A stretch of DNA of 64,000 bases from a candidate division WOR-1 bacterium RIFOXYB2_FULL_37_13 (GTDB lineage Bacteria; Margulisbacteria; WOR-1; XYC2-FULL-46-14; XYC2-FULL-37-10). The stretch is taken from positions 842 to 64,841 of the forward strand of contig MEUB01000036.1 of assembly GCA_001771535.1 (NCBI GenBank), written 5' to 3'. This document shows positions 32,879-57,307 of the stretch, in pieces. Each line of letters starts with the position of its first letter. The first letter of the stretch is position 1. The translations under genes and the position numbers were made by a program. Under the pieces are notes generated by a model. It was not told the origin of the DNA. It searched no databases and saw only the letters and a program-made list of their open reading frames with translations.

Positions 32879-33739
32879 TTATATAGGCTTTTGTATACTT
32901 CCAGTCATAGCTATCATGACATGTGTTGGATCATTGTTGTCTATTTCACAAGGATATACAGCTCCCACTCTAATAAGTTGTAAGGCAACATCCGGCAAAG
33001 GCATCTCTTTATCAAGAACATATGGAGTTATTCCTTCTCCGGTTACCTCATATTTAAGAGAATAAACTTTTTGACCATTTTTTGTCTTTTCCGCATCGGC
33101 AAAACCCATTATCCTAGCCTGGCCTTTTTTTCCATTAACCACAACGCCTCGCTCCACATTCCCAGCAACCCCTAAATTTTGAAAATTTACAGGCATCCCT
33201 TGCATTATGGGTTGTCCTTGAAAATTTTGCGCAGTTCTTTTTTCTGAAGGATTAATATTCCAGGCATTTATAGCTACCCTTTTTGGGTTTTTTGGATCAA
33301 CCTTAACGGGGATAACGGCTCCCAACCGGATAAGAGAAAGCCCCATTAAAGGAACCATAAATTTGTCTTCTACAATATAAGGAGGCTGGTTTGAGGTCGA
33401 CACTTCCAGTTTCAGTTTCATCATCGGTTGATTGTTTATTTGCGTTCCGGTCTGAATAACCTCCAAAATTCGCGCTTGCCCGTCAACTCCTTTTTCACGA
33501 AGTTCTTGATCACTAAATATCATTTTCCAGATTATTTTAATAGGGCCAATCAAAGAAGGAATAACAAAAAAAATAATCGCAATAATAAATACTATCGGCA
33601 AAAAATCTATCGGACGCAAACTAAGTCCCATATCGACTCTACTTCTATAAATATTCAGAAAAACGGCCGGAAGAACACCAAAACAAACAACAATAAAAAC
33701 AAAAACAGAAGAAATAATTGCAAATTTTACTGATCTCAT
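32879..33739 (-). CDS. Membrane protein, paralog family A (long, two C-terminal domains)
   Basis: 286 aa. The N-terminal TM pair is about 60 percent identical by eye to the 31993-32274 fragment. 33244-33389 is nearly identical in DNA to 29243-29388. The second domain repeats the pattern (GQARIMGF...LIRVGAVYPCEIDNNDP). Confidence 0.65.
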   Translation of the reverse strand: MRSVKFAIISSVFVFIVVCFGVLPAVFLNIYRSRVDMGLSLRPIDFLPIVFIIAIIFFVIPSLIGPIKIIWKMIFSDQELREKGVDGQARILEVIQTGTQINNQPMMKLKLEVSTSNQPPYIVEDKFMVPLMGLSLIRLGAVIPVKVDPKNPKRVAINAWNINPSEKRTAQNFQGQPIMQGMPVNFQNLGVAGNVERGVVVNGKKGQARIMGFADAEKTKNGQKVYSLKYEVTGEGITPYVLDKEMPLPDVALQLIRVGAVYPCEIDNNDPTHVMIAMTGSIQKPI

Positions 33740-42749: not shown

Positions 42750-42758
42750 AAGAATCAA

Positions 42759-43154
42759 TTAAACAACAACACCATTTCCTGATGTATCAGGATTAATCAA
42801 TTGACTGCGCATTTGTTTTGCCTTTGATGAAATATTTTCCAACGCGATTAACATTTTATCTATTTCTTTTTTAACAGCGGGATCCGACGAATCCTGTTTT
42901 ATTGTTCGAAGGACACAAATCGCATCTTCTAAATTATTTCCATCCTTAGAACCAGTTAAAAGAGCAACAGCATTTCTTATTTTTTTAGCAATTTCCTTTA
43001 ATTTTTGCTGATTTTCCAGTTTTGCTTCCCCTGTTTCTTTTAAAATCTGAGCCAAAATTTCGTGAAGATCGCGCAATATTTTATTTACCGCCTCGTTGGG
43101 GTCGTTTTTTTCAAAGGCAACCGCAATGTTATTAAGTGACGAAGGATTTATCAT
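42759..43154 (-). CDS. Cluster ORFan, all-helical 131 aa (N-terminus MINPSS)
   Basis: GGGAG RBS 9 nt before ATG 43154. No signal peptide. No family recognised. Confidence 0.55.
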   Translation of the reverse strand: MINPSSLNNIAVAFEKNDPNEAVNKILRDLHEILAQILKETGEAKLENQQKLKEIAKKIRNAVALLTGSKDGNNLEDAICVLRTIKQDSSDPAVKKEIDKMLIALENISSKAKQMRSQLINPDTSGNGVVV

Positions 43155-43187
43155 TTTACTCATCTCCCTTTGTAATCTCAAACATTA

Positions 43188-44807
43188 TTAAACCGCTTCT
43201 CTTATGTCCTGTGGTCCTCCCGGAATCTGAGAATCAAGATGCGATTCGACTTTCAAGCGTTTCATTAGTTTTAAAATTAAAGACAATCTCTTTTCCAAGT
43301 TTGGATTTTGTGCCCCTTTCACCCTATATTCCAAAGACAAAAACTCATCTTTTGCCGCGTCAAATACTTTAATATTGGCAGAGTCGCGCAAACTATTGAA
43401 TTCTGTTTCATCTATTTCCCAACCCAAACGTTTAAGGTTGCTTAAAATACCTTTAATTTTCTGTTCAACCAGCTTAAATGCCGGCCCGGCCAATTCGTAA
43501 AGAGTTCCTCTTTCTTCCAGCGCGGACGAAAGCATGTCAACCAATCTGAGCCTTGCGGCGGCTATCCCCTCTTTTTCTATATCTTTAAATTCATCGCTTG
43601 AAACACCAAGCTTAATTAATCCGTTCTTTAATTTTGTAACTTTAAAATAGGTCGAAAGAACAGTTGCCATATCTCCGGAAATAGCGCGATGCATGTAAAT
43701 GGCCCGTAATCTGTTTATAAAAAGATCTTTTTCGTCTTCTTTTGAAAACTCATAGGGATTCTTTTTGTTTTTTGACTGTGATCCTAAATCCATATCCCCG
43801 GTTCCTAATGGGATATTGGGCGCAAACATACCGATATCAAATTTCTTTACCTGCCAGTCCTGAGAAAATTCGTTTAAATTAACTCCTACCTTTGTAGCAA
43901 GCTTAAGAAGTTCTTTTAATTCATTTGTAATTTTCTTGTCTGTTTCGGCATCGGCAGCCAAATGTTTGCCAATTAACTTTTCTGCCATCTTCTCTTTGGT
44001 GAAATCTTTAAGGTCAGAAAGCATCTCTTTCTTAATTTCGTCCGCGACCCCTTGCAAAGATTCATTGTCATGCAAGCCGGAAAGCAAGGCAGAATCCAAT
44101 ACAGTGTTTAAAGTTTTGTCTCTGATTATAAGGCCAACACTCTTTTCTTTTGTCAATATCTTTTTAAAAAAAGCGTCCTTTATCTGTTCTCTGACATCCT
44201 GGCGCATGGAATTTTTTACAGTTGTTCTTATGGAAATAAGGTCTTTATTGGTAAATCCTTTTTCGCTGAGCAATTTCTCCAAAGTTTCAAGCTTCTTCTT
44301 AATATCCTGTGAATCATTTACGGCGTATTGGGAATAAAGGGCGGCATATTCTTTGACTGCTTCCTGTGTCTTTGCATCAACTGTAATTTTTAATGCCTGG
44401 TCCTGTCCTTTTTGTCCCTTGCCTCCCTGCTGTTTCTTTTGCTCCCCTGCCTTGCCGACAACATTATTTAATTCTACAAAATCATCAAACTTTTCATCTC
44501 CACGGAACAACTGGCTAAGTTCGTCCTCAAGCTCTCCTTTTGTCTTATCAGATAAACGGTCAGGCTTAAGAGAAACACCGGCTGTTGCCAGTTTTGTAGC
44601 CAATCCGGCCAAGATGTCGAGTCCGGCCTTGCTTGCCGTAACCCCGCTTTGAAGGAGTTTGTCGACATCTGATTTCGCCTCAACTTTTCGAGTTGGAAAA
44701 TCAGATGCCGTTTTTTTATCTATCTGTTTAAGTTCAACAGACAAACTATTGCTCAACGCGACAGCCATTTGCTGCGAAGACGCGTTATCTACAATGTTAA
44801 CTCCCAT
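43188..44807 (-). CDS. Cluster ORFan, 539 aa, K/E-rich helical with a Q/G/K low-complexity tract
   Basis: Long ORF with an RBS. No signal peptide or TM helix. GEQKKQQGGKGQKGQDQ tract. Confidence 0.6.
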   Translation of the reverse strand: MGVNIVDNASSQQMAVALSNSLSVELKQIDKKTASDFPTRKVEAKSDVDKLLQSGVTASKAGLDILAGLATKLATAGVSLKPDRLSDKTKGELEDELSQLFRGDEKFDDFVELNNVVGKAGEQKKQQGGKGQKGQDQALKITVDAKTQEAVKEYAALYSQYAVNDSQDIKKKLETLEKLLSEKGFTNKDLISIRTTVKNSMRQDVREQIKDAFFKKILTKEKSVGLIIRDKTLNTVLDSALLSGLHDNESLQGVADEIKKEMLSDLKDFTKEKMAEKLIGKHLAADAETDKKITNELKELLKLATKVGVNLNEFSQDWQVKKFDIGMFAPNIPLGTGDMDLGSQSKNKKNPYEFSKEDEKDLFINRLRAIYMHRAISGDMATVLSTYFKVTKLKNGLIKLGVSSDEFKDIEKEGIAAARLRLVDMLSSALEERGTLYELAGPAFKLVEQKIKGILSNLKRLGWEIDETEFNSLRDSANIKVFDAAKDEFLSLEYRVKGAQNPNLEKRLSLILKLMKRLKVESHLDSQIPGGPQDIREAV

Positions 44808-44819
44808 CTTATTTTCACC

Positions 44820-44996
44820 CTATCCTTTTTTCTTGCCTTCCTCTCCCCAAATGATTTTATTGACCGAGTTTGATTTTAGTTTTTCTGTAAGCCTTGCCAT
44901 CACCACGTTTGACCACTGATTCTGCTGGGCTTTGGAAAGTTTTTCATCAGTAGGTTTCACAGAATCCGAAAGTTTAGGATTATAAGTGCTCGCCAT
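44820..44996 (-). CDS. Cluster ORFan, 58 aa (MASTYNPKLSD...)
   Basis: AAGGAGG RBS 8 nt before ATG 44996. Overlaps the 3-prime end of the GT2-TPR gene by 17 nt. Confidence 0.5.
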   Translation of the reverse strand: MASTYNPKLSDSVKPTDEKLSKAQQNQWSNVVMARLTEKLKSNSVNKIIWGEEGKKKG

Positions 44997-46086
44997 TTGA
45001 ATCAACCTCCTTTTTTAATTGTTCAATCCTAGCCTTTAATTTTGGATCAGGATAAAAATCGTAAGCAATTGTAAATTCCCTCAATGCGTCTTGTTTTTTT
45101 TGACCCATTAAATATGCGCTACCAAGATAAAAATGCGGAAAATAAGTATAATCTTTGATATTAAAACCGTTTAAAGCATTTTTGGGCGGGGATAATTTAC
45201 TTGCGTGCTCAAAAACATGGATAGCATCTTTGGTCTGTTTTGTGAACAGGTAAATAACACCCATCATGTTATAAGCCTCGGCATTAAACGGCTCCAACGC
45301 GATAACTTCTTTTAAGGTTTCAAAAGCTTGCGCGTATTTGCTCTGTTCCATAAGCATCTTTGACATCCTCATCCTTGAGACAACCGAGATAGGATCTTTG
45401 GGCGCAATTGAGACAACCGTAGAATATTCAGAAAACGCGGTTGTCTTGTCTCCAACGTCAAAATAGTTATTTGCCAAAAGGAAGTGGCAATGAAAATCAT
45501 TTTGGTCTTTTTGCAAAGCCTCTTTTAGTATCCGGAAATTTCTCTCCTTCTTTTCCTTTGCCTTCTCCTCACCCAAATCCTTCCCCCAATGAAAAACTTT
45601 AATATCTTGCAAAAATTCCCCTTTGAGCAATTCTCCCGAGGCAGCATAAACCTGCTCATTAAAAGAACGCCCAAAATGAATTCCTTTATTATTTTTAAAA
45701 ACTTTCAGCCTTGAATAAAATCTGGAGCCTTCCTCTGTTCCGAATTGAGCCTGATATATAGGCAAATAATATGCCTCTTTGTCACTCTTCTCTAAAATCT
45801 GGCGAAGCGTATCAAGCGTTTTCTCATTTATAAACTCATCAGCGTCTACCCATATAATCCAATCACCCAAAGCGTGTTTGAGCGATTCATTTCTAGCCGC
45901 CGAAAAATCATCGATCCAAGAAAAAGTATGAATTTTCGCCCCCAGTTTTTTGGCGATTTCAATTGTATTGTCCGTTGATCCGGTATCAACCAAAACAATT
46001 TCATCAACTTTTTTTGCAAGAAGAGGCAAAGTTTTTTCAAGAACTTTTTCTTCGTTTTTTACTATCATACAAACTGAGAGTTTCAT
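44980..46086 (-). CDS. Family-2 glycosyltransferase fused to C-terminal TPR repeats
   Basis: LSVCMIVKNEEKVLEKTL, VDTGSTDNT, WVDADE (DxD) GT2 motifs. The C-terminal about 170 aa has TPR-like repeats. Confidence 0.8.
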   Translation of the reverse strand: MKLSVCMIVKNEEKVLEKTLPLLAKKVDEIVLVDTGSTDNTIEIAKKLGAKIHTFSWIDDFSAARNESLKHALGDWIIWVDADEFINEKTLDTLRQILEKSDKEAYYLPIYQAQFGTEEGSRFYSRLKVFKNNKGIHFGRSFNEQVYAASGELLKGEFLQDIKVFHWGKDLGEEKAKEKKERNFRILKEALQKDQNDFHCHFLLANNYFDVGDKTTAFSEYSTVVSIAPKDPISVVSRMRMSKMLMEQSKYAQAFETLKEVIALEPFNAEAYNMMGVIYLFTKQTKDAIHVFEHASKLSPPKNALNGFNIKDYTYFPHFYLGSAYLMGQKKQDALREFTIAYDFYPDPKLKARIEQLKKEVDSNGEHL

Positions 46087-46476
46087 TTAATTTTCTCCTA
46101 CAGAAACCGATATTCTACTCTTAGTCAAAAATTTTTCTATTTTCTCCTTTTCTTCATTCTGAGTCTTAAAAACTTTCCCAAAATATTTCTTGTACATATC
46201 AAGCAGCCTTTCAGCCCGCTTTATATATATTTCAAGTTTTTCAAGTTTTATCAAAACTTCTTTTTTATCTGTCCCCAATACTTGCATCTCATATTCAATA
46301 TTTGACCTTTCAGAATAAAAAGATAAAAGATGATTCTTTAACGCGTCATATTCCATCTCTTTTATTTTTATCGGATTATAATCATCTTTCACTCCCAGCT
46401 TGTCGGCTTGGATCAAAAGCTGATTTTCAAGCTCTTGAAAAACTCTCATTTGAGCTTTTATTTTTTTACTGCTCAT
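46087..46476 (-). CDS. Cluster ORFan, 129-aa coiled-coil protein
   Basis: Heptad-rich K/E sequence. The stop abuts the GT2-TPR start, and the start overlaps the upstream gene by 4 nt. Confidence 0.55.
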   Translation of the reverse strand: MSSKKIKAQMRVFQELENQLLIQADKLGVKDDYNPIKIKEMEYDALKNHLLSFYSERSNIEYEMQVLGTDKKEVLIKLEKLEIYIKRAERLLDMYKKYFGKVFKTQNEEKEKIEKFLTKSRISVSVGEN

Positions 46477-47024
46477 ACAATTTTTGCCCCCGTAACAATC
46501 CCAAACAATGCCTTTTCACTTGCGACCTGTGCCAGGCCATTTTTAACAGCAATATTTTTTTCTTCTCTTGCTTTTGACATTAATTTTTCTATTTCAGCAG
46601 GGCTTATGCCAAGCAATCCCATTTGAAAAGTAATTACCCCAACCCCCATTTTAGAAAGTTCGGCCACAAAAAAATTATGGCTGAAAGTATCCATTGCAAG
46701 CTTAACCATCTTATTTTTAAGAACCTGCAAAGTTTTATCCCTGAATCTCAAATTATTATTTTTTGATAACGATTCAACTTCATCTTCTGCCAAAGCCGAA
46801 GATGCGGCGGCAAGATAGACGGTATCCTGCATTCCGACTTTATAAGTTTTGCTTCCATCTTTTCCCTCAACTGTTTCCCACACTAAAGAGGACATTTGTT
46901 GTGTCCCTTCGTTCTGTTTTTCTTTGGGAACTTCTTCTTTTAATTTTTGGTATGCGGCTTTTTGCGCCGAGAACATTTTGTCCTGGCTTAAATTAGCCGC
47001 AATTGTTGGCGCTTCATATGCCAT
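46473..47024 (-). CDS. Cluster ORFan, 183 aa
   Basis: GGGGAAGG RBS. First gene after promoter P4. No family recognised. Confidence 0.55.
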   Translation of the reverse strand: MAYEAPTIAANLSQDKMFSAQKAAYQKLKEEVPKEKQNEGTQQMSSLVWETVEGKDGSKTYKVGMQDTVYLAAASSALAEDEVESLSKNNNLRFRDKTLQVLKNKMVKLAMDTFSHNFFVAELSKMGVGVITFQMGLLGISPAEIEKLMSKAREEKNIAVKNGLAQVASEKALFGIVTGAKIV

Positions 47025-47047: not shown

Positions 47048-47075
47048 AAATCGTATTAAATAGGGAAAAACTTGC
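47048..47075 (-). promoter_or_regulatory. Sigma-28-like promoter P4
   Basis: Minus strand GCAAGTTT-TTCCCTATTTAA-TACGATTT. The -10 element ends 23 nt before ATG 47024. Confidence 0.55.
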
Positions 47076-47108
47076 ATTTAAACTAAGAAATAAAAAGAGG
47101 ATTAACCT

Positions 47109-49388
47109 TTACTTGTTTTTCTTTTTCTGGCCGCCCTTACGTTCTTCCATCCGTTTTCGCTGCACTTTAGAACTTGACTCCTTATTTCCCATTTTTTGTA
47201 ATTCTTCTCTTCGTTTTTGGGCTTTGGCCGCGGATTGAGCAATTCCGGCCCTGATCTCGGCATCCTTTTTTTGTTCTTGACCTTTATCAATGGCTTCCTG
47301 ATATCTCAACTCCATTTTTCTCTCATGGTAGGCTGCCATATCTTTTTTATAATCCAGGCGGTCTCTCCTATTGCGGACATTGTTAGCAATTGTTCTGCCG
47401 ACATCCTTGTCACCAAATCTTAAAAGCCCCATAACATCGTAAACCGCCCAGTTATTCATATTAACAGCTTCATTGCCATTTTCATCATAAGCAATTCCTG
47501 ACCTATTTCCTGAAAGATTTATTCCCATAAGCTGTGAAGGAAAATATTTTGGATGAGGCCCTCCGGAATCACTGGCTATTTTATTGTTGTTTGGGCCATC
47601 TTTAATCGTTGACGATGTTTCACTATCAGGATTCCAGATACTGCCTTTAGCGCTGTAAAAATCCCACCCCGCACGTTTTCCCAGTTCGTTGTCATCATTT
47701 TTCGTTCTTATGTAAGGCTGAGAATCATAAACACTACCATAACTATCGGTATTAGGGTTTGGATTGTCTATTCCAAAATATTCATACATCAGATTTTGAA
47801 CGTCACCTTGATATTCATCTATTCCGTAATAATCGTCATCATCTACTCCTTGATAATTTTCATCTTTCGCAAGCGACCCAAGATAATTTTTATATGTTTG
47901 CGTATTATTATATAGCCAGTCGTTAAATCTTATAAACGCCAGCTGATCTTTACCCGAAAAGAGCCATCCCGGAAGTCCTCCGCTTTTATCGGTCGGCTTA
48001 AAAAGAAATTCCGAGGGATTAAATCCATACGCGGGAAAAACTGATCTGAAAGAATGCTGCATAGAAATAAAAAGGTTAAGAAAAGCAAGATTATGCGAAT
48101 CTGCCATAAGCCCTCGCATAGGATCAGAACGCCATTTATCAAAAGAGCCGCGCAACGCGGCATCATCTGGAGTTGCTGTTACTGTTACCGTCCCATCGCT
48201 ATTGGTAACATATGTCAAACGGCCTATATCGCTATTGCTCCCAAAGATCTCTGTCATGGCGCTATAAATTCTACGGCGTGATTCGAGCATTCCAAGCATC
48301 AGCTTAAATGCCCCTTCCCCATGATCTCCAGCTTGCAGGTCATAATCAAATAGGCCGCTATTAAAAGAATCGCGTCCTGTGGTAAATGTTTCGCCATCTC
48401 CGCTTTTCCAGTTATTATTGTTATTCCAGTCACTGTCTCCCTTCCATCTTATGTTTTCCCCATCGGTAACCCCATCGCTCCCTGCCTCAATTTTTGCCCC
48501 TTTTTTAAATCCCGACATTATAATTTCATAGTAACTTTCGTCTCCATAATCTTCAAGATTTTTTAAAATACCGTCAGATAATGCTTTAATCGGAGTTCCT
48601 TTTTTTTCTTTATCTTCTTTATTGTAAAAATTGAGCCCTTCATCCCAAATATCAGAATAGGTTTCTGGATTAAAAATTCCCAGTGATAATGGGTTTAAAA
48701 AATGAAATAAATTATCGTAATTTATAGGGCCATTAAGAGATGAGCCCTGATACGTCTCAATAAGATCATGAGCTTTTTTTTCAATTCCATAATGTTTCTT
48801 GTCATTTTGATTAACATCGAAGTGGTTGAATTGGGATACTGACGGATGAAAATCTAGGTTTTCCGCCCTACTCCCTTCAAAAAATCCCCAAGGCAACCCA
48901 TCCCCCTGAGTTCTTGGAACTCTATGCCATGAGCCAAAGTTATCTCTTGTATATCCACGCCCTGCATCGCTATCCCAGACATCGTTAAAACGGGTATGCA
49001 CAGGATTTCCATCTTCATCCAACAGATAATACGGATTTTTATCGTCAGTCCCGTTCCATTGCGGAATATCCTCAGGATCTCCTTCCCATAAAGTCGGAAG
49101 TGGATCGTTGCCCTCCCAAAATGAAGAGCCTTCCGCATATCCGAATTCCGTCAAAGCATCGTAAAACTCTTCTGATGATTCTCCCGCGTAACCTACCTGT
49201 TCAAATCTTGGCAGAAATTTCATCATCTCCATAAGAAAATTAACGCGGCTGCCCAGCCATTGGAAAGAAGAGGGAGTTTCAACCCCATCATGGAGATAAA
49301 ATCTGGAATAATCAGGATTGTCTACTTTCAACGGCTTACGAGGTTTTGGCAGTGTCTCACTATTTCCAAAGGAGTTCATAAAAAACAT
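47109..49388 (-). CDS. Cluster ORFan, 759 aa, acidic W/Y/D/N/G-rich body with an about 90-aa K/R-rich C-terminal tail
   Basis: AGGAGG RBS. No signal peptide or TM helix. The tail ends ...KAQKRREELQKMGNKESSSKVQRKRMEERKGGQKKKNK. Confidence 0.65.
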   Translation of the reverse strand: MFFMNSFGNSETLPKPRKPLKVDNPDYSRFYLHDGVETPSSFQWLGSRVNFLMEMMKFLPRFEQVGYAGESSEEFYDALTEFGYAEGSSFWEGNDPLPTLWEGDPEDIPQWNGTDDKNPYYLLDEDGNPVHTRFNDVWDSDAGRGYTRDNFGSWHRVPRTQGDGLPWGFFEGSRAENLDFHPSVSQFNHFDVNQNDKKHYGIEKKAHDLIETYQGSSLNGPINYDNLFHFLNPLSLGIFNPETYSDIWDEGLNFYNKEDKEKKGTPIKALSDGILKNLEDYGDESYYEIIMSGFKKGAKIEAGSDGVTDGENIRWKGDSDWNNNNNWKSGDGETFTTGRDSFNSGLFDYDLQAGDHGEGAFKLMLGMLESRRRIYSAMTEIFGSNSDIGRLTYVTNSDGTVTVTATPDDAALRGSFDKWRSDPMRGLMADSHNLAFLNLFISMQHSFRSVFPAYGFNPSEFLFKPTDKSGGLPGWLFSGKDQLAFIRFNDWLYNNTQTYKNYLGSLAKDENYQGVDDDDYYGIDEYQGDVQNLMYEYFGIDNPNPNTDSYGSVYDSQPYIRTKNDDNELGKRAGWDFYSAKGSIWNPDSETSSTIKDGPNNNKIASDSGGPHPKYFPSQLMGINLSGNRSGIAYDENGNEAVNMNNWAVYDVMGLLRFGDKDVGRTIANNVRNRRDRLDYKKDMAAYHERKMELRYQEAIDKGQEQKKDAEIRAGIAQSAAKAQKRREELQKMGNKESSSKVQRKRMEERKGGQKKKNK

Positions 49389-49411
49389 AATCTGCCTTCC
49401 TCCTGATTTTT

Positions 49412-49735
49412 CTACATTGAACTTAAGCGATCTTCAAGTTTGCGCACATTATTCCAAATATCCAAAATCGCGGATTGCGCCTGATCTATTTTTGCCATGC
49501 GATCTTCAAGCAGCAATGATGTTGAAGAAGAATTTACATTTGCTCCGTTTACATAATTATTTCCTATTTTCAAAGTTTTAGTAGGATCCGGATTCACTGA
49601 TAATTCCGCGTAATTTTTTATAAGATCAGCCATTTCAGTATAAAAACTTTTAACAGTTTTTATAACGTCCACATCAGGTGAATGATTGATCTCCCCTCCC
49701 AACGGTGAAAAAAATTTAACATTAAAAAATGCCAT
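49412..49735 (-). CDS. Cluster ORFan, 107 aa, helix-loop-helix-like
   Basis: AAGGAGG RBS. Predicted N- and C-terminal helices flank an N/S-rich loop (VNPDPTKT...NVNSSSTS). Confidence 0.55.
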   Translation of the reverse strand: MAFFNVKFFSPLGGEINHSPDVDVIKTVKSFYTEMADLIKNYAELSVNPDPTKTLKIGNNYVNGANVNSSSTSLLLEDRMAKIDQAQSAILDIWNNVRKLEDRLSSM

Positions 49736-49758
49736 TTTTTTATTCCTCCTTTTATATC

Positions 49759-49817
49759 CTCTTCTAAAAAATCAATTATCTGTTTTTTTAGAAGAGCCCC
49801 CCGGCAAGCCGGGGGGC
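49759..49817 (-). other. Twin stem-loop element between the 102-aa and 107-aa genes
   Basis: 9-bp GC-only stem GCCCCCCGG-caag-CCGGGGGGC (49796-49817) plus a 13-bp arm pair CTCTTCTAAAAAA / TTTTTTAGAAGAG (49759-49771 and 49784-49796). No 3-prime U-tract on either strand. Confidence 0.7.
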
Positions 49818-49836
49818 TAGAAAAAAGTTTATAATA

Positions 49837-50145
49837 TTAGCTTCTAACAATTTGACGGGTCCTTTCCGCCATTTGATTCTTCTTGGATACAGCGCTTGCA
49901 GCTGTCTGCTCAATTGTCGATAGTTTACTAAGATAACTATCTAAAACAAGAGCCCCTCCACCACTTGATACGTCTATGTCTGTCCCTCCAACATTCACAT
50001 TTATTGTTGTGTCTTCAATCGTATCATTCTCCCCATCAACTGCAATAGCACTTTTGATATCTTCCATCAGTTGATCTATGCTATTATCACAAGAACTTGC
50101 CACATCATAAGCATTCTGTTCAATCGTATTAGGAGTATCTGCCAT
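49837..50145 (-). CDS. Cluster ORFan, 102 aa, acidic
   Basis: AGGAGGTG RBS. Helical N- and C-termini flank a G/D/T-rich middle (NVNVGGTDIDVSSGGGAL). Confidence 0.55.
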   Translation of the reverse strand: MADTPNTIEQNAYDVASSCDNSIDQLMEDIKSAIAVDGENDTIEDTTINVNVGGTDIDVSSGGGALVLDSYLSKLSTIEQTAASAVSKKNQMAERTRQIVRS

Positions 50146-50186
50146 ATATTCTCACCTCCTTTTACACACATATAGTCTTAAACCGT

Positions 50187-50444
50187 CTACACCAATGTAT
50201 TAACATTAAAGCCCCGCATACCAAGTTTATCTGCTATCGCGTGAAATCTGTTAACTGAGATATGTCCTTCCTGTACAAGGTTTTGCATAATTTCAAACTT
50301 ACCAGCCTTGCTGGTAGAAGAATCTTTGGCCAGATAGGAGGAAAGATCGGAAGTCACGCTTGAATTGGAATAAGTAGACCCGCCGGATTCTTCCATATCC
50401 ATCTGCGGCATAGTTACTGTTGAATTTGAAGCTGGGTTTATCAT
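50187..50444 (-). CDS. Possible FlgM-like anti-sigma-28 factor (85 aa)
   Basis: S/T-rich, probably disordered N-half. C-terminal KFEIMQNLVQEGHISVNRFHAIADKL parallels the FlgM C-terminal pattern (kVaalKaaIasGtYkvDaekIAdkL; compare B. subtilis [26 protein letters not shown]). Sits directly behind sigma-28-like promoter P3. Confidence 0.35.
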   Translation of the reverse strand: MINPASNSTVTMPQMDMEESGGSTYSNSSVTSDLSSYLAKDSSTSKAGKFEIMQNLVQEGHISVNRFHAIADKLGMRGFNVNTLV

Positions 50445-50454
50445 TGCATTACAT

Positions 50455-50482
50455 ATATCGTAGCGGGGTAAAAAAAACTTGC
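50455..50482 (-). promoter_or_regulatory. Sigma-28-like promoter P3
   Basis: Minus strand GCAAGTTT-TTTTTACCCCGC-TACGATAT. Only 10 nt lie between the -10 element and ATG 50444, with no SD (leaderless geometry). Confidence 0.55.
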
Positions 50483-50491
50483 ATGAAAAAA

Positions 50492-50785
50492 TTATTTGTA
50501 GGATTTATCATTTAAAATATTTTTTATTTTTGAAAGGCGCTTAAAAATATTTTTAAGACACTCTTCTTCTTCGTCTATTTTCGGCTCTTTTTCCCAATCA
50601 GCCTTTAATCTAGCCTTGCTCATGTCTGACGCGTAAATTTCGTTGCCGCGAACAACTTTATCGGCGCGCAAAATAAATCCGCGCAGACTTTGCAGAAAAT
50701 TTTGTCCGTTTATTTCCTGCGGCTGGCTTTGTTTTGTTTTTATATCATTTAAATTAAGTGCTGCGTTTATTTTATTTACTTCCAT
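50492..50785 (-). CDS. Cluster ORFan, 97 aa
   Basis: Start ATG overlaps the stop of the 1523-aa gene (TAATG), suggesting translational coupling. Confidence 0.55.
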   Translation of the reverse strand: MEVNKINAALNLNDIKTKQSQPQEINGQNFLQSLRGFILRADKVVRGNEIYASDMSKARLKADWEKEPKIDEEEECLKNIFKRLSKIKNILNDKSYK

Positions 50786-53700
50786 TATACTAGCCCTCCT
50801 CCGATTGTAGGCCTGTTTTTCTGCTCTAAAGATGAAAGAGCCGCCATTTCTCCTGTTTGCGCTAAATAGAGCTCATAAGGATTCTGCCTTCTTCTGTTGT
50901 TGTCCTGGCCTTTAGATGGAGATGGCGCTGAGTTTACAGATATCCCAGCATCTTGTGAGCCGCTTAAATCAACAGGGATTACTATTTTGTCTTTGTCATC
51001 ATCCCTCGCAACTTTAAGATGAATATCCCTTTGTTTGACAGAGTCCTTGATATAATCAGCCGAGCTTTTGGAGGTATCCCAAATATTGTTTAATATATCA
51101 TCATTTTGTTGAGAGGTAATCTCGCGAGCCTCCATTTCAAGATCAATAGCGCCGGATGTGAGCGCGCTTGCGAGAGAATTGCTTTCTGACTTATTAACTC
51201 CCGCGGCCCATCCCTTTTGGTTTGAGCCTGAAGTTTCTGATCTGATTTCAGATAAATAGGCCTCTCTTCTTTCTATCCTCTCTTCTCTTGCCTCTTTAAC
51301 ACTCTTGCGCTTTCCACCGCTTGCGAACCCTGAATCATAAATAATACCAGCCAGTAAAACCGCTATATTCTCCGTTAACCCTCCTATAAACTGGTATAGT
51401 CCTAAGTCCTCGTACTGCTTAATATGTTCATTATACGCAAACATTTTTTTATCATTTTCGGACTTAATGTTTTCTATATCAGCATTAATTTTTCTATACT
51501 CATTAGCAAGTTTTTTATATGAAGACTCATCCCCTCTCGAATAAGCCTCATCCGCGAATTTCCTTTTTTCTTCCGCCAAAATTTTCTTGTCTCGCGCGAC
51601 TTTTTCAGCTGTTTTCATGTTTTCTATATTCTCCCGATAGTCCTCTCTAAGCGCCGCTGTTTTATATACAAAAACCAGATTAACCAAAGAGATTGACGCG
51701 GCAATCAAGCTCTGTACCATTGCCCGCTTTGCAAAATTCATCTGGTTATGGCGCTCAACAATTGTCAAGACATTCTGATAAAGGGTACCTATATTTGCCA
51801 TAGCAGAAGCCTGTTCCGATGAAAAAGCGTCTGTCGCGTTTCCAACTCGCCCTCCCGCACCAGATAAAGTAGCGTGAATTGAGGCTCTCATTTCTGCCTT
51901 TGCTTCCTGCAATTTTGCCAACACGTCACGAATATTAAAAATCCTCTCCATTTTATGACGAAATAATTCTACTACTCCGCTATTTACACCCCATCTGCCC
52001 GCCCCCAAATCTTCTATAATATCCATTGACATATCTTTGTATAATTCCATTTCCATCAATTCAAGATCATCAAGTGTCGAATCTCCAGAATGTTCTTCTT
52101 TTAATCTTTCGGCAATTTTTTCAGGGTCGTATTTTTCTATTTCACGCCCTCGCCTGCTGCGGATTGAATTGATGATAAAATCATAACCGGCATTAGCAAT
52201 CCCCATCATAGGAGAAATAAAGGCAAAAGCTATTTGCGAGTAATTTATCCCAACACCGGCGCAAGCGGTAAGAATCGCAATATCAATTCCCAGTTTAAAT
52301 GAAGCATCAATTATATTTTTTCTTGAATCTAAGGCTCTCTTTTGAGTTTCAATTCTTTCTCCCAAGAACTGCACTAAATTATCAAAAACTTTCAGCTTCC
52401 CTTCAAATTCAGCTCTGTTAACATCGTGAGAAAGCTTCCCTTCTCTTCTTCCGGAAACGCCTGTCATTTCGAGATGGACAAGATTTCTCATTTCTGTTCT
52501 TGCTTCATTTAGAGTCGCCAAAATATTTTGGATGTTGGCAAGGCGGGTTAAAATATCTCTAAGCTTGGCAACATATCCTCCATTTAAACCCCAATATCCG
52601 TCACCAATATCTTTATTTATCCCGTTGGTAAATAACTCTTCATAAACTCGCGCTTCAAGGCTTGCCATACGGGCTTGCGTTGAATTCGGGTTATTTTTTC
52701 TAAGGGTTCTTAGATAGGCGGGAACGCCATCATCCCCATAACTTGAGCCAAAAGAGCCCATCGTCAATTCATATAACAGACTGGAAGTAAATCCGCCTAA
52801 AGCGCCACCGACCCCCCAGCCTATATAAAAAAGTCTTGTTGAAAGACTTGCCGTAGCTTCTGTAGCAGCCCTTGTCCCAGCTTCCAAACCTTCTTCAGCA
52901 AGTTTGCCGCCTTTATCTAAAAGTTTCCCTAATAACCCTCCAAAGGCAGCGCAGACCCCTTGAATAACAAGCGAAAGAGCAAAACTGTTTACGGCGCCTG
53001 CCATTTTTTTATCTTTTGCAATCGCCATATTTTCGGCGTTTTTATATTCATTTAACATAAAAGTCAAAGTATCAAATTTAAACTGAGCTAAGCGCGCATC
53101 AGATTCAACCGCGGCATCAACATAGGCAGAAGATTCCCTACCTCCAACTCCTGTCATTTCCATATGAACCAGATTTCGCATGGAATTTTTTTCTTTACTT
53201 AAGGCAACAATAACTCTTCTTATATTTTGAATTTTTACCAATTGGGTTTGCAGTCTTGCTATCTCCTCAAAGTCTATTTTCTTGAATTCTTCGGATGCCC
53301 TATCTGTAAACCAGTTGCCGGGGTTTGCATTAGACTGTGTCCACCACGATCTAACCCTGCCTTCATCGCTATCCTCATCCTGAATCATACTCTCATCATT
53401 TTGAACAATAATGCCATCTTCCATATTGGAAGTACTATTCATAATATCAAGCATGTCGTTTCCTGTATCTGTATCAGCTTGATCTCCCGTATCGTATGAA
53501 GGAATATCCGGCACATATCCCTCTGTCATAGAATTTGCGACAATTGCGCCTGCCAGTTTTACTCCCGCAGCCAATACGCCAAGTATCAAGCCCGCAACAG
53601 GAACAAAAAATCCGACTACTATCGCAGCTACAGAAAGAAAATTCGAAATAACATTAAAAACCCGCTGTACTTTGGCTTTTTCTATTTCTCCTTCCAGATA

Positions 53701-55356
53701 TTTGACATTGTTTTCAAGCTGCATCTTTTGCTGAGTAAGCCTGATATTTGTCTCAAAAAGTTGAGTTTTATGCTGGTCTTCCATTTCTTGAAGTCTTTGC
53801 GCGTTACTGTTGCTCTCTCTGCCTCCGACCCCTGTCATCTCTTTGTGAACCATGTTGCGCGTTTCCTGTTTCGCGCCTCTTAACATGTTTAACGCTTTTC
53901 TTATATTTTGCAAACCATAAAATTGTTTGCGTATTTTAACAAGTTCATCTTCATCAAGTTCCCAATAACCATTATCCCCTTTATAGACAATATTCGGGAT
54001 ATCAGCAAAGATAGCCATTTCTCCATTTTGCAACGCCTCATCAATTTTTGCGGGGTCACTTTCTATCTGCAAAGAGCCATCTTCCTCTTTATCAGTCGTT
54101 TTATTTAACAAGTCAAGAACTGTACTCATCGCTCTTAAATATTTTTCAACAGCTCTTTTTTGCATTTCAAGACTCATTTCCGTGTTGCTGCCGCCGGTTA
54201 TGGCATCTGTTGCCTGATTCCAGAGGCCATCCGTTGTTGCCTGCGCCGCGGCGACCTCCGCATCAACAATGGCCTGGTTATAATCCATCATCTCTTCAAG
54301 AAGTTTGCCAAACGCCACGCTGACTCTTGCCAGCCTGTTTTGTACTTCTTTGGCAATAATTGTTTTGGTATCCATTCCTTTCATGGGAGTAAGGCCAAGC
54401 AGCTCTTCCACCACAAGATTATACATATCATCTTTCGCTTCCGTCAGCATTTGGAACATAATAAGCAGCCCGCAAAGAAAGCTGACTTTTTCATACCAAT
54501 CAGCCAAACGATCCGTATCAACAACCATCATTCCATCATCGTTGTAATAATAAAAATCATCAGGATCATAATTATTTACCGCGTTATCCAGCTCGTTGCT
54601 GACAGCAACCACAGTCTCCGCTGTTGAACTATTTTCATCTAAGGCCGCAAGATACGAATATTCATAAACATAAGAGGTATCCCCATTTTCATATTGTTGC
54701 TGATGCAGCCATTGGTCAAAATTATATTGGGCGGAATGCTGAGTATTGGCATCCCATGATTCTTCAAATGTTTCGATCTCTTTGCCGTCCTGATAAACCA
54801 GTATTGCATCTTCTTCTCTAGTTGAGGCAGAGGTATCTTTTCTATAGTGGGAATTTACAACCATATAACCGTCATATTTTTTTGATTCTTCTTCCAGATA
54901 AGCCTGCGCCGCTTCTTCACTGTCAAACGTAACTGTAGTTCCATCAGGGTTTGTAATTGTTACCGTAGTCTCTCCTGTAGTATCCACATAAGTAGTCATA
55001 TCATATTCAGCTGAAACATCGGTACTGGCAGATTGGCTCTCAGTTGTAGAAGTTGACGAAGTTGTTGATGTCGTTGATGCAGTTGAAGCAGTCTCCGCAG
55101 ACTGAGAAGATGAAATATAATTAGGGTTATCTTCCGCAAGATTTAAAACTGGCTCACCAAAAACAACCTGACTTTGCGCACTGTTCAAGCTTGAACGAAT
55201 TGAAGAAACATCAACAGATATAGAAGAATCAACTTCAGGCACTTCTATCTTTTCATCAAGAAGGTATGGAGGAGTTACACCCGCGCCACCAATTTGGTCA
55301 GATTCAAGCTGGTCAGAAAACTTTTGTACTTCAACAATTTGATAGAGGTTTCCCAT
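50785..55356 (-). CDS. Giant modular membrane protein (1523 aa) with four to five repeated helical-plus-hydrophobic-hairpin modules
   Basis: Repeated motif NxVHxEMTGVGGRES at 53812-53856, 53131-53175, 52441-52485 and a degenerate SIHATLSGAGGRVG at 51841-51882. Each is preceded by GYW-x-LN...NIR/Q...L..EA and followed by a coiled coil and a 40-50-aa bilobed hydrophobic segment. S/T tract at 55021-55113. Confidence 0.75.
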   Translation of the reverse strand: MGNLYQIVEVQKFSDQLESDQIGGAGVTPPYLLDEKIEVPEVDSSISVDVSSIRSSLNSAQSQVVFGEPVLNLAEDNPNYISSSQSAETASTASTTSTTSSTSTTESQSASTDVSAEYDMTTYVDTTGETTVTITNPDGTTVTFDSEEAAQAYLEEESKKYDGYMVVNSHYRKDTSASTREEDAILVYQDGKEIETFEESWDANTQHSAQYNFDQWLHQQQYENGDTSYVYEYSYLAALDENSSTAETVVAVSNELDNAVNNYDPDDFYYYNDDGMMVVDTDRLADWYEKVSFLCGLLIMFQMLTEAKDDMYNLVVEELLGLTPMKGMDTKTIIAKEVQNRLARVSVAFGKLLEEMMDYNQAIVDAEVAAAQATTDGLWNQATDAITGGSNTEMSLEMQKRAVEKYLRAMSTVLDLLNKTTDKEEDGSLQIESDPAKIDEALQNGEMAIFADIPNIVYKGDNGYWELDEDELVKIRKQFYGLQNIRKALNMLRGAKQETRNMVHKEMTGVGGRESNSNAQRLQEMEDQHKTQLFETNIRLTQQKMQLENNVKYLEGEIEKAKVQRVFNVISNFLSVAAIVVGFFVPVAGLILGVLAAGVKLAGAIVANSMTEGYVPDIPSYDTGDQADTDTGNDMLDIMNSTSNMEDGIIVQNDESMIQDEDSDEGRVRSWWTQSNANPGNWFTDRASEEFKKIDFEEIARLQTQLVKIQNIRRVIVALSKEKNSMRNLVHMEMTGVGGRESSAYVDAAVESDARLAQFKFDTLTFMLNEYKNAENMAIAKDKKMAGAVNSFALSLVIQGVCAAFGGLLGKLLDKGGKLAEEGLEAGTRAATEATASLSTRLFYIGWGVGGALGGFTSSLLYELTMGSFGSSYGDDGVPAYLRTLRKNNPNSTQARMASLEARVYEELFTNGINKDIGDGYWGLNGGYVAKLRDILTRLANIQNILATLNEARTEMRNLVHLEMTGVSGRREGKLSHDVNRAEFEGKLKVFDNLVQFLGERIETQKRALDSRKNIIDASFKLGIDIAILTACAGVGINYSQIAFAFISPMMGIANAGYDFIINSIRSRRGREIEKYDPEKIAERLKEEHSGDSTLDDLELMEMELYKDMSMDIIEDLGAGRWGVNSGVVELFRHKMERIFNIRDVLAKLQEAKAEMRASIHATLSGAGGRVGNATDAFSSEQASAMANIGTLYQNVLTIVERHNQMNFAKRAMVQSLIAASISLVNLVFVYKTAALREDYRENIENMKTAEKVARDKKILAEEKRKFADEAYSRGDESSYKKLANEYRKINADIENIKSENDKKMFAYNEHIKQYEDLGLYQFIGGLTENIAVLLAGIIYDSGFASGGKRKSVKEAREERIERREAYLSEIRSETSGSNQKGWAAGVNKSESNSLASALTSGAIDLEMEAREITSQQNDDILNNIWDTSKSSADYIKDSVKQRDIHLKVARDDDKDKIVIPVDLSGSQDAGISVNSAPSPSKGQDNNRRRQNPYELYLAQTGEMAALSSLEQKNRPTIGGGLV
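51700..54430 (-). repeat. Intragenic protein-level repeat modules (201-230 aa period) of the 1523-aa gene
   Basis: Motif spacing is 681, 690 and about 603 nt. An earlier, more degenerate module lies near 54370-54425 (DMYNLVVEELLGLTPMKGMD). Confidence 0.7.
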
Positions 55357-55364
55357 TGATCATT

Positions 55365-55392
55365 ATATCGAAACAAAAAGGGGAAAACTTGT
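55365..55392 (-). promoter_or_regulatory. Sigma-28-like promoter P2
   Basis: Minus strand ACAAGTTT-TCCCCTTTTTGT-TTCGATAT. 8 nt lie between the -10 element and ATG 55356, with no SD (leaderless geometry). Confidence 0.55.
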
Positions 55393-55439
55393 ATGGTTTT
55401 TATTGATTTACAGGGGAAAACAAAACCTGTTTTAATTAG

Positions 55440-55658
55440 TTATTTTTGCAGGTTTTTCAACTGTTCCTGCAAGGTTTTTTTCGCATTTTCAAGCTCTTTG
55501 TTGACGGAGGCAATTTTATTGTCAAGTTTTTTGATATCTTCTTCGGCTTTTTTCTTTATGAGTGTATAGCGTATAATTTGAAAAGTATTATATATTATAA
55601 AGGCGACTCCCACCCCGACAAAAAATGTCACCCAATTTATAGTTGTTAAAAATTCCAT
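55440..55658 (-). CDS. Cluster small bitopic protein (72 aa): N-terminal TM helix plus coiled coil
   Basis: INWVTFFVGVGVAFIIYNTF TM helix, then a K/E heptad region. AGGAG RBS. Confidence 0.55.
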   Translation of the reverse strand: MEFLTTINWVTFFVGVGVAFIIYNTFQIIRYTLIKKKAEEDIKKLDNKIASVNKELENAKKTLQEQLKNLQK

Positions 55659-55680
55659 TTTGTTCTCCTATTTTACTCCA

Positions 55681-56037
55681 TCACACATTACTGTCAACTA
55701 CGGGATTATCCGCCGTAGGATTGCCGGCCATAGGGATAGAAAGGTCGCCGGATTCTTTTTCTTCTCTTTCAACTTTAACACGTGATTCATGCGCGCCAAA
55801 TAAAAATTCCGCCACAAGATCAAGAAGGCTTTTAGTCGCGGTCGCATGCATTTTAAATTCCAAGGTATCTATTTCTGCTCCTTCAGGAGTATACCTGTTA
55901 GTCACAGAAGTTTGTAACGGCTCATCAACAAGTTTCCGTTTAGCAGCCTTAATTTCACCGGCAAGGTCAGGCTCATATTTAATTGCTTTACTATTTCCAC
56001 TCTTCGGATTCATTGATATCGGCGATGTATAAGCCAT
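55681..56037 (-). CDS. Cluster ORFan, 118 aa (MAYTSPISMNPKSG...)
   Basis: AAGGAG RBS. No family recognised. Confidence 0.55.
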   Translation of the reverse strand: MAYTSPISMNPKSGNSKAIKYEPDLAGEIKAAKRKLVDEPLQTSVTNRYTPEGAEIDTLEFKMHATATKSLLDLVAEFLFGAHESRVKVEREEKESGDLSIPMAGNPTADNPVVDSNV

Positions 56038-56060
56038 TTCCCTTCACGCTCCTTTTTTCC

Positions 56061-57230
56061 CTAACTTCCTCCGCTAACAGGAACCGGAATATCCGCAGCA
56101 TATTTATTAAGTGTATCAATCACCCACTCTGTTCCTTGTTTTTCATAATTTTCAAATATCAGATCGGTAACATATTTCCCTTCAGGGGTTACTGTCTTTG
56201 CGTCAAAGTTAATCGCATCAATCCGTTCTGCAAGACTTTTCTCTTTTGCCCATTTTCTAAACCGTTCAAGATTCTTTTGATACCCTAACAATTGATCAAT
56301 ATCTCTTTTTAAGCTCTTGTAATCTTTCATGTAATCTTTATTCTGGTAATAACTCTGTAAAATAGGAGCAAAACGGTCTACGGCCCATTTATCGGCAAGC
56401 ATAAGTTTGTTTATTGTAGGATAACCAAATTTTTTGCCCGCGTCTTCAATAAACGAATTCGTAAGACCCATGGTAAACAATTTCCAGCCTTCAGAATTTA
56501 ACTTGTCAAAGCTTTGAGCAGGTTCGTCACTGCCAACAACAGAAGCAACAGCCGCATAGTGAAAAGCATTACTAACTGCGGTATTTCCCAAATCAGCATT
56601 GCTCCAACCCATTTCTTTTACTTTTGATGTCATAGTCCTTGCAGAAATAATTACAAGATATTTGGTTTCCGCAAGCTGCTTAAATGACCGCTCTCCTGTT
56701 AAATCCATTGAACTCAAAGTATCTTTCAAGATTATAAGAAGTTCATTTCTGTCCTTGATATTCCCTTTCCCAAGAGTAATATCATCCCAGAATTTTTTTG
56801 TAGTTTGAACCCCCAGCAATTTATCAAATTCTTTCTGATTCATGCCATCCGTTTTAAATGCCAAATCAAGAGAGGCAGAAACATTTGCTTCCTGAAATTT
56901 TTTATCAGGTCTTATCTGTCCAAGGAATGAATAAATTTGATGATCGAGAGTTGTAGGTATCGGGATATCTCCACTTGCTGCCGCGTCAACTCCACTTTGG
57001 GGAGTAACTATTCCTGGCGCTATATTTCCGCTGGCAGAAGAAGAGGTTCCGGTCGGTTCTATTTCGCCCGCAGAAGAAGTCGCTGAAGTTGACGGCAAAT
57101 AAGAAGAAAGAACCGAAGTATCAGTTCCCAATTCAACTCCGGGCATATTTCTGCCGCACCCGTCCACTACAAGATTTACATTTCTTGTCGGTTGTTTTGG
57201 CGCACTGGTTACAGGAATAAAAAGAGCCAA
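56061..57230 (-). CDS. Cluster ORFan, 389 aa with an S/T/G/P-rich N-terminal region
   Basis: TTG start with AGGAGG 7 nt upstream. S/T tract at about 56975-57119. No signal peptide. Confidence 0.6.
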   Translation of the reverse strand: MALFIPVTSAPKQPTRNVNLVVDGCGRNMPGVELGTDTSVLSSYLPSTSATSSAGEIEPTGTSSSASGNIAPGIVTPQSGVDAAASGDIPIPTTLDHQIYSFLGQIRPDKKFQEANVSASLDLAFKTDGMNQKEFDKLLGVQTTKKFWDDITLGKGNIKDRNELLIILKDTLSSMDLTGERSFKQLAETKYLVIISARTMTSKVKEMGWSNADLGNTAVSNAFHYAAVASVVGSDEPAQSFDKLNSEGWKLFTMGLTNSFIEDAGKKFGYPTINKLMLADKWAVDRFAPILQSYYQNKDYMKDYKSLKRDIDQLLGYQKNLERFRKWAKEKSLAERIDAINFDAKTVTPEGKYVTDLIFENYEKQGTEWVIDTLNKYAADIPVPVSGGS

Positions 57231-57279
57231 AGGAAATACCTCCTTTACCTTCTATAATATATAAATCATTACACCTCTA

Positions 57280-57307
57280 TAGTCGAATCAAGCTTTAAAA
57301 AACTTGC
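57280..57307 (-). promoter_or_regulatory. Sigma-28-like promoter P1
   Basis: Minus strand GCAAGTTT-TTTAAAGCTTGA-TTCGACTA, 49 nt upstream of start 57230. Confidence 0.5.

Follow-up and report, generated by a model that had tools for sequence, protein, structure and literature searches.

A sigma-28-like motif, conserved across Margulisbacteria and Saganbacteria, as the likely promoter of an orphan gene cluster and of flagellar operons

The window analysed here is a 64,000-nucleotide (nt) stretch of contig MEUB01000036.1 from the candidate division WOR-1 bacterium RIFOXYB2_FULL_37_13. It carries four copies (P1 to P4) of a bipartite motif, all at the head of genes in one cluster of orphan proteins. 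The four sites are, with good probability, promoters that RNA polymerase reads with the help of an alternative sigma factor from the sigma-28 (FliA/WhiG) lineage, which would be specific to and highly conserved in Margulisbacteria/Saganbacteria (WOR-1). Region 4 of this sigma factor would bind the -35 box, ATGCAAGTTTTT, and region 2 would bind and melt the -10 box, TACGATAA or TTCGATAT, the two boxes being held apart by a spacer of invariably 12 nt. The predicted start lies about 6-10 nt past the -10 box, P1 and P4 giving ordinary leaders with a Shine-Dalgarno sequence, and P2 and P3 a leader of 0-5 nt. Through the four promoters, the orphan cluster with its two glycosyltransferases would become part of the lineage's flagellar regulon.

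The four copies had been pointed out in a sequence-only reading of this DNA, and they are present as quoted, on the minus strand (Table 1). In all four the boxes are 12 nt apart and the dinucleotide AT directly precedes the first box; from the motif end to the start codon there are 49, 8, 10 and 23 nt (P1 to P4), in agreement with the 8-49 nt given in that reading. The pattern CAAGTTT-N12-TWCGA (W = A/T) has four exact matches in the 64 kb where 0.01 is expected, all on the minus strand and upstream of genes, and none of 100 dinucleotide-preserving shuffles reached four. When up to two mismatches are allowed, 18 matches are found and 18.7 are expected, which is chance level; the signal is thus confined to the exact copies. 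That the window holds no further copy, as claimed, was confirmed both with the exact pattern and with a 33-nt weight matrix built from 48 aligned clade sites, which at 18 bits or more returns the same four sites only. The accompanying claim that the copies occupy the only sizeable gaps of the cluster is true in one direction. P1 to P4 do lie in gaps, but two more gaps in the cluster are free of the motif: 41 nt before the gene for a 102-amino-acid (aa) protein, and 101 nt, with a GC-rich hairpin, before the 107-aa gene. A third gap, 172 nt long and upstream of the 539-aa gene, is partly filled by a conserved open reading frame (ORF) of 61 aa.

The motif recurs in relatives. The strict pattern ATGCAAGTTTTT-N10-TWCGAYW, applied to one genome per species from 185,579 species, was found at 80 or more loci, and about 30 of those listed are, by their record titles, from Margulisiibacteriota, Marinamargulisbacteria, Termititenax or Saganbacteria/WOR-1 (here, the clade). 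The longest ORF covering the motif has a median length of 93 aa in the clade matches vs. 265 aa in the others; the clade motif lies outside long ORFs. At positions that the pattern leaves free, the clade matches converge on TACGATAA followed by A or T, giving an extended clade promoter of ATGCAAGTTTTT-N10-TACGATAA. With the strict-pattern matches excluded, 333 kb of clade DNA yield 20 additional weight-matrix sites, 14 of which had no part in the training, and 331 kb of non-clade loci yield none. The 12-nt spacer, AAGTTT and CGA are invariant in all 48 aligned clade sites. On this comparison of sequences, Margulisbacteria/Saganbacteria as a whole have kept the motif as a type of promoter. The earlier proposal of a regulon dedicated to the cluster has accordingly to be given up: the motif is clade-wide and also stands before flagellar genes and numerous further orphan genes.

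Conservation is seen in L007, a metagenome contig (the retrieved loci are numbered with an L), which has orthologs of 14 cluster genes in unchanged order, with 28-66% protein identity. The intergenic sequence and the spacers have diverged in L007, yet the two boxes and their 12-nt spacing are kept. The motif precedes the L007 counterparts of the P1, P2 and P4 genes; at P3 there is a weaker form, CAAGATT-N12-TCCGA, and one extra copy precedes the ortholog of the 102-aa gene. Orthologous P4 sites lie between a 759-like gene and genes for 183/129-like proteins, a family 2 glycosyltransferase (GT2) with tetratricopeptide repeats (TPR), and a 539-like protein. The L026 orthologs of the P4-operon proteins are 36-39% identical to those of the window.

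The functional setting is provided by flagellar operons. In L025 the motif stands directly before genes for FliK-domain, FlgE/F/G-like, FliM, FliN, FliO, FliP, FliR, FlhB and FlhA proteins, and in L082 before FliK-domain, FlhB-C-terminal-like and FlgF/G-like rod genes. The same flagellar operon follows the motif on three long contigs, where the copy is exact (L091) or reads CAAGATT-N12-TACGA (L088) or CAAGCTT-N12-TACGA (L090). Over these five loci, the genes preceded by the motif are FliK-like, rod/hook, FliM/N/O/P/Q/R, FlhB and FlhA; the FlhB sequences of the clade share 70-98% identity. In the 81 proteins that motif-driven operons encode, no Pfam family recurs except flagellar ones and GT2, and most of the remainder lack a Pfam match. 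In the literature, Margulisbacteria are among the clades carrying FlgV, which is co-conserved with flagella and sigma-28 (PMC11607428), and flagellins from the phylum have been listed (PMC7018530). The main Margulisbacteria/Saganbacteria paper and the paper on the Trichoplax symbiont leave flagella unmentioned.

A candidate for the cognate sigma factor is found in the same operons. In L088 (Margulisbacteria) and L090 (Rifle WOR-1), FlhA is followed by one or two small ORFs and then by a sigma factor of 197 aa. Its first NCBIfam match is a generic sigma-70 model, followed by FliA_WhiG (E = 1.4e-18), FliA, WhiG and sigma-28, and then by SigB/F/G. Pairwise it scores 31 bits against E. coli FliA, used as a reference point only, and 4 bits against RpoE. 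Regions 2 and 4 match in the FliA alignment, with 32 residues between the two blocks vs. 90 in FliA. The AlphaFold2 model shows a sigma-2 domain, a helical linker of low confidence and a sigma-4 domain. The best Foldseek matches of the model are B. subtilis SigB and SigD models, Aquifex sigma-28/FlgM (1rp3), Streptomyces WhiG and Pseudomonas (P. aeruginosa) sigma-28; sigma factors of the extracytoplasmic function (ECF) type rank lower than these group-3 factors (RpoE 18, SigW 22).

At E <= 1e-10, 344 proteins make up the family of the 197-aa sigma. Its 120 best-scoring members measure 192-203 aa, with one exception of 292 aa, and share at least 76% identity with the query; wherever a match names its organism, this belongs to the Margulisbacteria/Saganbacteria clade. 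The predicted DNA-recognition segments, one like region 2.4 and one like region 4.2, are invariant in the family; so conserved a sigma factor fits so conserved a promoter. Going by co-occurrence and family resemblance, the 197-aa sigma is most likely the reader of the motif, and we infer that the window's own genome encodes it as well. Since the flagellar operon both starts with the motif and encodes the sigma factor, positive autoregulation is implied.

Two observations were made on the surroundings of these operons. In L088, L090 and L091, a sequence that looks like the 3'-part of a tRNA, judged by appearance, is found right upstream of the flagellar-operon promoter; it follows a Mur ligase gene, and in L088 a hairpin comes after it. 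The small ORFs between flhA and the sigma gene, of 80/87 aa and 71 aa, have no family match, and the 80/87-aa one is conserved between L088 and L090. As candidates for an anti-sigma factor or a chaperone they are without support. No match to the FlgM family was obtained among the proteins of the window, the neighbors of the 197-aa sigma or the proteins of the motif-driven operons.

The likeness to known sigma-28 systems extends to both the promoter and the protein. The sigma-28 (FliA) consensus is TAAAGTTT-n11-GCCGATAA (PMC2859248), and the fliC promoter of E. coli reads TAAAGGTT-n11-GACGATAA (PMC4183435). Enteric and clade promoters have in common two boxes, a short rigid spacer, the cores AAGTTT and CGATAA/CGATAT, and an association with flagellar genes; the GACGATAA of fliC is close to the TACGATAA of the clade. 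The start is expected in both a few bases past the -10 octamer; at E. coli aer it is 6 bp after it (PMC2859248). AAGTTT and CGA(T), named as the shared cores in the sequence-only reading, are indeed shared, and CGATAA is as well. On the protein side, the FliA/WhiG family (TIGR02479; 1rp3, 6pfj, 6pmi) is the best specific match of the 197-aa sigma in sequence and in fold; the segments …YVSVRLKGxMQDYLRKRG… (region 2.4-like) and …LSESQVSRICK… (4.2-like) align with FliA, and the gene comes after flhA.

Other members of the family bring further parallels. B. subtilis sigma-D promoters have the form TAAA-N15-GCCGATAT, and the sigma-D gene lies at the end of the fla/che operon; a distal sigma gene in a long flagellar operon and the -10 box CGATAT are common to Bacillus and the clade. 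The main promoter of fla/che depends on sigma-A, whereas the clade operon itself starts with the sigma-28-like motif. Sigma-28 of Chlamydia (late genes, e.g., hctB) and WhiG of Streptomyces (sporulation genes) are FliA-family factors with non-flagellar regulons. They resemble the clade case in that a FliA-type sigma drives genes not recognisably flagellar, and differ from it in that the clade has flagellar basal-body and export genes with the same promoter.

Several points weigh against assigning the motif to a sigma-28-lineage factor, and the sigma-28-type reading first offered stands with comparative support from the flagellar operons and the FliA-like sigma but with departures in spacer and protein. 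The clade -35 box begins with (AT)GCAAG and not TAAAG: compared with TAAAGTTT, six of its eight bases (AAGTTT) are invariant in the 48 sites, and the first two are GC or AC, not TA. When the T that opens TAAAG is replaced at E. coli aer, activity falls about tenfold (PMC2859248), so enteric FliA might use the clade box poorly. The clade spacer is always 12 nt, the enteric one 11. The CGA core of GCCGATAA is present in all four window boxes, and the bases before CGA are TA or TT in the clade vs. GC in enteric promoters (TACGAT vs. GCCGAT); it is speculation that these changes are tied to the loss of region 3. Unlike enteric class 3 promoters, the clade motif drives early genes (export, rod/hook, FliK) in addition to presumed late ones. 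Two of the window promoters, unlike enteric ones, appear to give leaderless mRNAs, and the window genes are not recognisably flagellar.

The sigma factor itself is not a canonical FliA. It scores 67.5 bits against FliA_WhiG, far below the cut-off of 189.6; the family's length of 192-203 aa goes with an ECF-like two-domain layout in place of the three-domain one (sigma-2/-3/-4), most of region 3 being absent; and its public annotation is 'sigma-70 family' only. Because of the score below the cut-off and the missing region 3, it might recognise DNA unlike FliA. The flagellar operon of L091 does not end with its gene, which leaves two of the three long contigs with that arrangement. No recognisable FlgM, flagellin, FlgK/L, FliD or FliS is encoded behind any motif copy; the 64 kb of the window contain no flagellar gene and no sigma gene; and the window's metagenome-assembled genome (MAG) is absent from the named matches among the best 120 FlhB and the best 120 sigma homologs. 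On the statistical side, the training set of the weight matrix consists mostly of strict-pattern matches, and the fraction of the scanned collection that belongs to the clade, well under 1%, is an estimate and not a measurement.

The distance from promoter to gene bears on both mechanism and alternatives. P2 and P3 mRNAs are predicted to be leaderless, or nearly so, because the ATG lies 11-13 nt past CGA and no Shine-Dalgarno sequence is present; by this geometry they appear to be leaderless or near-leaderless. The same 11-13 nt are repeated before the 1523-aa homologs in L007, L032, L041 and L087, and also before small genes (75-88 aa) in L007, L037 and L048; the 1523-like gene of L037 has instead a leader with a Shine-Dalgarno sequence. 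That so short a stretch between -10 box and ATG has been conserved suggests that the regulon uses leaderless mRNAs systematically.

The alternative that survives best, though we rate it as unlikely, makes the motif a promoter of an ECF-type (group 4) sigma factor, for which it can be read as GCAAGT-N16-CGAT. The 197-aa sigma has regions 2 and 4 only, with the short linker noted above, and its score against TIGR02937 (sigma70-ECF), 69.9 bits, is slightly higher than that against FliA_WhiG. TIGR02937 is, however, a superfamily model for regions 2 and 4 of all sigma-70 proteins, and the top specific families are all FliA, WhiG and sigma-28; the pairwise scores (RpoE vs. FliA) and the Foldseek ranks point the same way, and the sigma gene occupies the fliA position of the flagellar operon. 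The ECF promoter consensus is GAAC-N16-17-CGT. Against its AAC and CGT, AAG and CGA are present in 48 of 48 clade sites, and only the overall spacing is compatible. The choice between ECF and sigma-28 is partly a matter of naming, as the protein could be described as a FliA derivative minus region 3.

The odds are somewhat longer for a second alternative, in which the motif is the binding site of an activator or repressor and transcription starts from true promoters in other parts of the intergenic regions. A conserved element of 20-30 nt in front of co-regulated genes would fit an operator too. Yet this element is bipartite and asymmetric with a rigid, otherwise unconstrained 12-nt spacer, as is typical of sigma factors and not of dimeric operators, and its orientation follows that of the gene in every case. 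At P2, P3 and their orthologs, the 11-13 nt from CGA to the ATG leave no room for a downstream promoter. Pairs of sigma-70-like hexamers occur in the cluster at chance level (46 found, 41 +/- 7 expected), and both boxes of the motif match halves of the sigma-28 consensus. Just as improbable is that another alternative sigma factor, e.g., of group 3, reads the promoters and that the co-occurrence with the 197-aa sigma gene is coincidental: the assignment does rest on co-occurrence and family resemblance, and the sigma gene of L091 does not follow flhA, but sigma family and motif share a narrow taxonomic range and are both unusually invariant, the sigma gene lies within an operon that starts with the motif, and its closest characterised relatives recognise boxes of the AAGTTT / CGATAA type.

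The four sites head a co-directional cluster of 16 kb, running from 57230 down to 41655 on the minus strand (Table 1). The cluster proteins are recorded in GenBank for the WOR-1 bacteria RIFOXYC2_FULL_37_10 and RIFOXYB2_FULL_37_13, both of which the NCBI taxonomy places under Candidatus Saganbacteria. The largest, of 1523 aa, has four internal repeats with a near-identical core (…NIRxxLxxLxEAKxEMRNLVHxEMTGVxGR…) that are separated by hydrophobic segments rich in Gly/Ala, and an acidic N-terminus rich in Ser/Thr. A word-indexed search of 5.8 billion proteins gave one relative, 54% identical, and remote homologs (20-27% identity) follow the motif in L032, L037, L041 and L087. The 72-aa protein has, from its sequence, an N-terminal hydrophobic stretch and a Lys/Glu-rich tail, and its family is also present in L037, L041 and L087. 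The 539-aa protein is all-helical and belongs to a family of 244 representatives, in 76 members of which no Pfam domain was found; its AlphaFold2 model is confident over residues 145-535 and has no meaningful structural match. The P4 operon includes the GT2-TPR protein (368 aa) and a CgeB-like glycosyltransferase of 367 aa with DUF3880 and Glyco_trans_1_2 domains. The 61-aa ORF between the GT2-TPR and 539-aa genes is probably a real small gene because it is conserved in L026, where the counterpart has 64 aa. The hairpin after the 102-aa gene probably acts as a terminator, and a comparable one is found at the same place in L007. The 107-aa and 759-aa genes that follow have no motif of their own and may be transcribed by read-through or from another promoter.

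Apart from the two glycosyltransferases, no cluster protein has a Pfam or NCBIfam match above curated cut-offs, and a profile search against the PDB gave no match for the 85-, 102-, 107-, 129-, 183-, 389-, 539- and 759-aa families. The canonical late flagellar proteins (flagellin, FlgK/L, FliD, FliS, FlgM/N) have no family-model or fold match among the cluster proteins. Phmmer searches of the retrieved loci with approximate flagellin and FliA queries gave no match. Two identifications were considered and gained no support. That the cluster consists of diverged late flagellar genes is unsupported by Pfam/NCBIfam, phmmer or the profile search against the PDB, although it may still hold for the unmodelled proteins; and the 85-aa protein as FlgM lacks support since its FlgM-like C-terminus is not kept in the L007 ortholog, the PDB profile search again being without a FlgM match. 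Glycosyltransferases of the two types seen here occur in flagellin and spore-surface glycosylation. As a hypothesis, the cluster proteins may be exported, or belong to a surface structure, and be expressed together with the flagellar export system; the idea comes from the disordered N-termini, the small helical proteins, the giant repeat protein with its hydrophobic segments and the two glycosyltransferases.

Table 1. Motif sites, leaders and predicted operons of the window, corresponding sites in related loci, and other features mentioned in the text (coordinates without a locus number refer to the window).
Feature	Position	Strand	Description	Score (bits)
P1	57280..57307	-	GCAAGTTT (57307-57300), 12-nt spacer, TTCGACTA (57287-57280)	27.5
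P1 leader			49 nt, AGGAGG Shine-Dalgarno, TTG start of 389-aa gene	
P2	55365..55392	-	ACAAGTTT, 12-nt spacer, TTCGATAT	31.0
P2 start	55356-55368	-	ATG of 1523-aa gene 11 nt past CGA; no Shine-Dalgarno	
P3	50455..50482	-	GCAAGTTT, 12-nt spacer, TACGATAT	31.6
P3 start	50444-50458	-	ATG of 85-aa gene 13 nt past CGA; no Shine-Dalgarno	
P4	47048..47075	-	GCAAGTTT, 12-nt spacer, TACGATTT	38.2
P4 leader			23 nt, GGGGAAGG Shine-Dalgarno, then 183-aa gene	
P1 operon	55440..57230	-	389-aa (Ser/Thr-rich N-terminus), 118-aa and 72-aa proteins	
P2 operon	50492..55356	-	1523-aa protein (50785-55356), then 97-aa protein	
P3 operon	49795..50444	-	85-aa and 102-aa proteins, then GC-rich hairpin	
Hairpin, probable terminator	~49795-49818		AGCCCCCCGG-cttg-CCGGGGGGCT	
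107-aa and 759-aa genes	47109..49735	-	No motif of their own; orthologs at the same position in L007, L026, L036	
P4 operon	41655..47024	-	183-aa, 129-aa, GT2-TPR (368 aa), 61-aa, 539-aa, 140-aa, CgeB-like (367 aa)	
61-aa ORF	44820-45005	-	Counterpart at L026:4900-5094	
P1 ortholog	L007:7960			
P1-like sites	L041, L087, L032		Before operon upstream of giant gene	
P2 position	L037, L041, L087		Motif between 72-like gene and 1523-aa homolog	
P2 position	L032		Motif directly upstream of 1523-like gene	
P3 ortholog	L007:15494		Weaker; same 13-nt spacing	
P3-like	L037:7268		Small gene downstream of giant gene; before 75-80-aa genes	
P3-like	L048:3722		Before 75-80-aa genes	
P4 ortholog	L007:19032			
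P4 ortholog	L026:2679		Saganbacteria	41
P4 ortholog	L036:2821		Saganbacteria	
11-13-nt geometry in relatives	L007:9989-10001, L007:15520-15534, L032:2466, L041:6145, L087:997, L037:7268, L048:3722			
Small ORFs between flhA and sigma gene	L088:13214-13668, L090:13255-13518		80/87 aa and 71 aa	
tRNA 3'-part-like sequence	L088:4840-4965		Also in L090 and L091	
Leader element of clade genomes	L063:3968(+), L076:2681(+), L085:1533(-), L017:6043(-), L017:2520(-), L060:5812(+), L047:3067(-), L071:1206(-)			
Short hairpin repeats	L007:7800-8030, 9262-9336, 16632-16690, 22736-22805		Type CCCCGATTATGATAATCGGGG	
Integrase region	30002-30862 (-), 31341-31985 (+), 32879-33739 (-)		IS-type integrase genes with rve domains; a second ORF, also of 286 aa	
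PIN-domain protein	8321-8716	-	Toxin-antitoxin type	
Nucleotidyltransferase/HepT pair	20112-20943	+	Toxin-antitoxin type	
Large ORFs outside the cluster	13240-16443 (-), 22680-25951 (+)		1067, 406 and 684 aa	

In several clade genomes a sigma-28-like promoter is followed by a leader of 80-150 nt. An invariant GCCUGUU in this leader can pair with an AACAGGC found 30-60 nt downstream, and the AACAGGC shares bases with a hairpin that resembles a terminator (AGCUCGC…GCGGGCU, then a U-run) and directly precedes the Shine-Dalgarno sequence. The element looks like an attenuator or a riboswitch-like device; it has no Rfam match at E <= 0.1, and its helix is without covariation. The window promoters do not carry the GCCUGUU/AACAGGC leader element. 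In L007, short hairpin repeats in intergenic regions look like repetitive extragenic palindromic (REP) elements; the cluster of the window has none of them.

Outside the cluster, the window encodes ordinary housekeeping functions of a diderm bacterium, among them LptF/G, tRNA synthetases and TrpB/C, along with integrases and toxin-antitoxin pairs; tRNA genes and Rfam matches are absent. The region with insertion sequence (IS)-type integrase genes, in which the second 286-aa ORF has the same length and is without a Pfam match, may be the 'island' with paralogs mentioned in the earlier reading. The large ORFs outside the cluster have neither a Pfam match nor a motif upstream.

A literature search found no description of the transcription signals or of the regulation of flagellar genes in this lineage. 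The promoter model ATGCAAGTTTTT-N10-TACGATAA and a candidate cognate sigma factor are offered here for a whole uncultivated lineage, sister to Cyanobacteria, and the motif can be used to define the regulon directly from MAGs. The DNA-reading regions of the sigma factor are FliA-like, region 3 is gone and the promoter is altered; the pairing could show what region 3 contributes to sigma-28 recognition. A bolder picture, which we put forward as doubtful, is that a minimal two-domain FliA derivative controls the whole flagellar-type export system, and that the orphan cluster provides its lineage-specific late substrates or structural parts, made partly from leaderless mRNAs. The 1523-aa repeat protein, the 759-, 539- and 389-aa proteins, the small helical proteins and the two glycosyltransferases would be the parts concerned. 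If true, the cluster would specify a non-canonical glycosylated extracellular structure, or secreted proteins, that replaces or adds to the hook-associated and filament proteins. Used to define a regulon, the motif links about 16 conserved orphan proteins, the 1523-aa one included, to a flagellar-type export system and provides a first functional handle on them.

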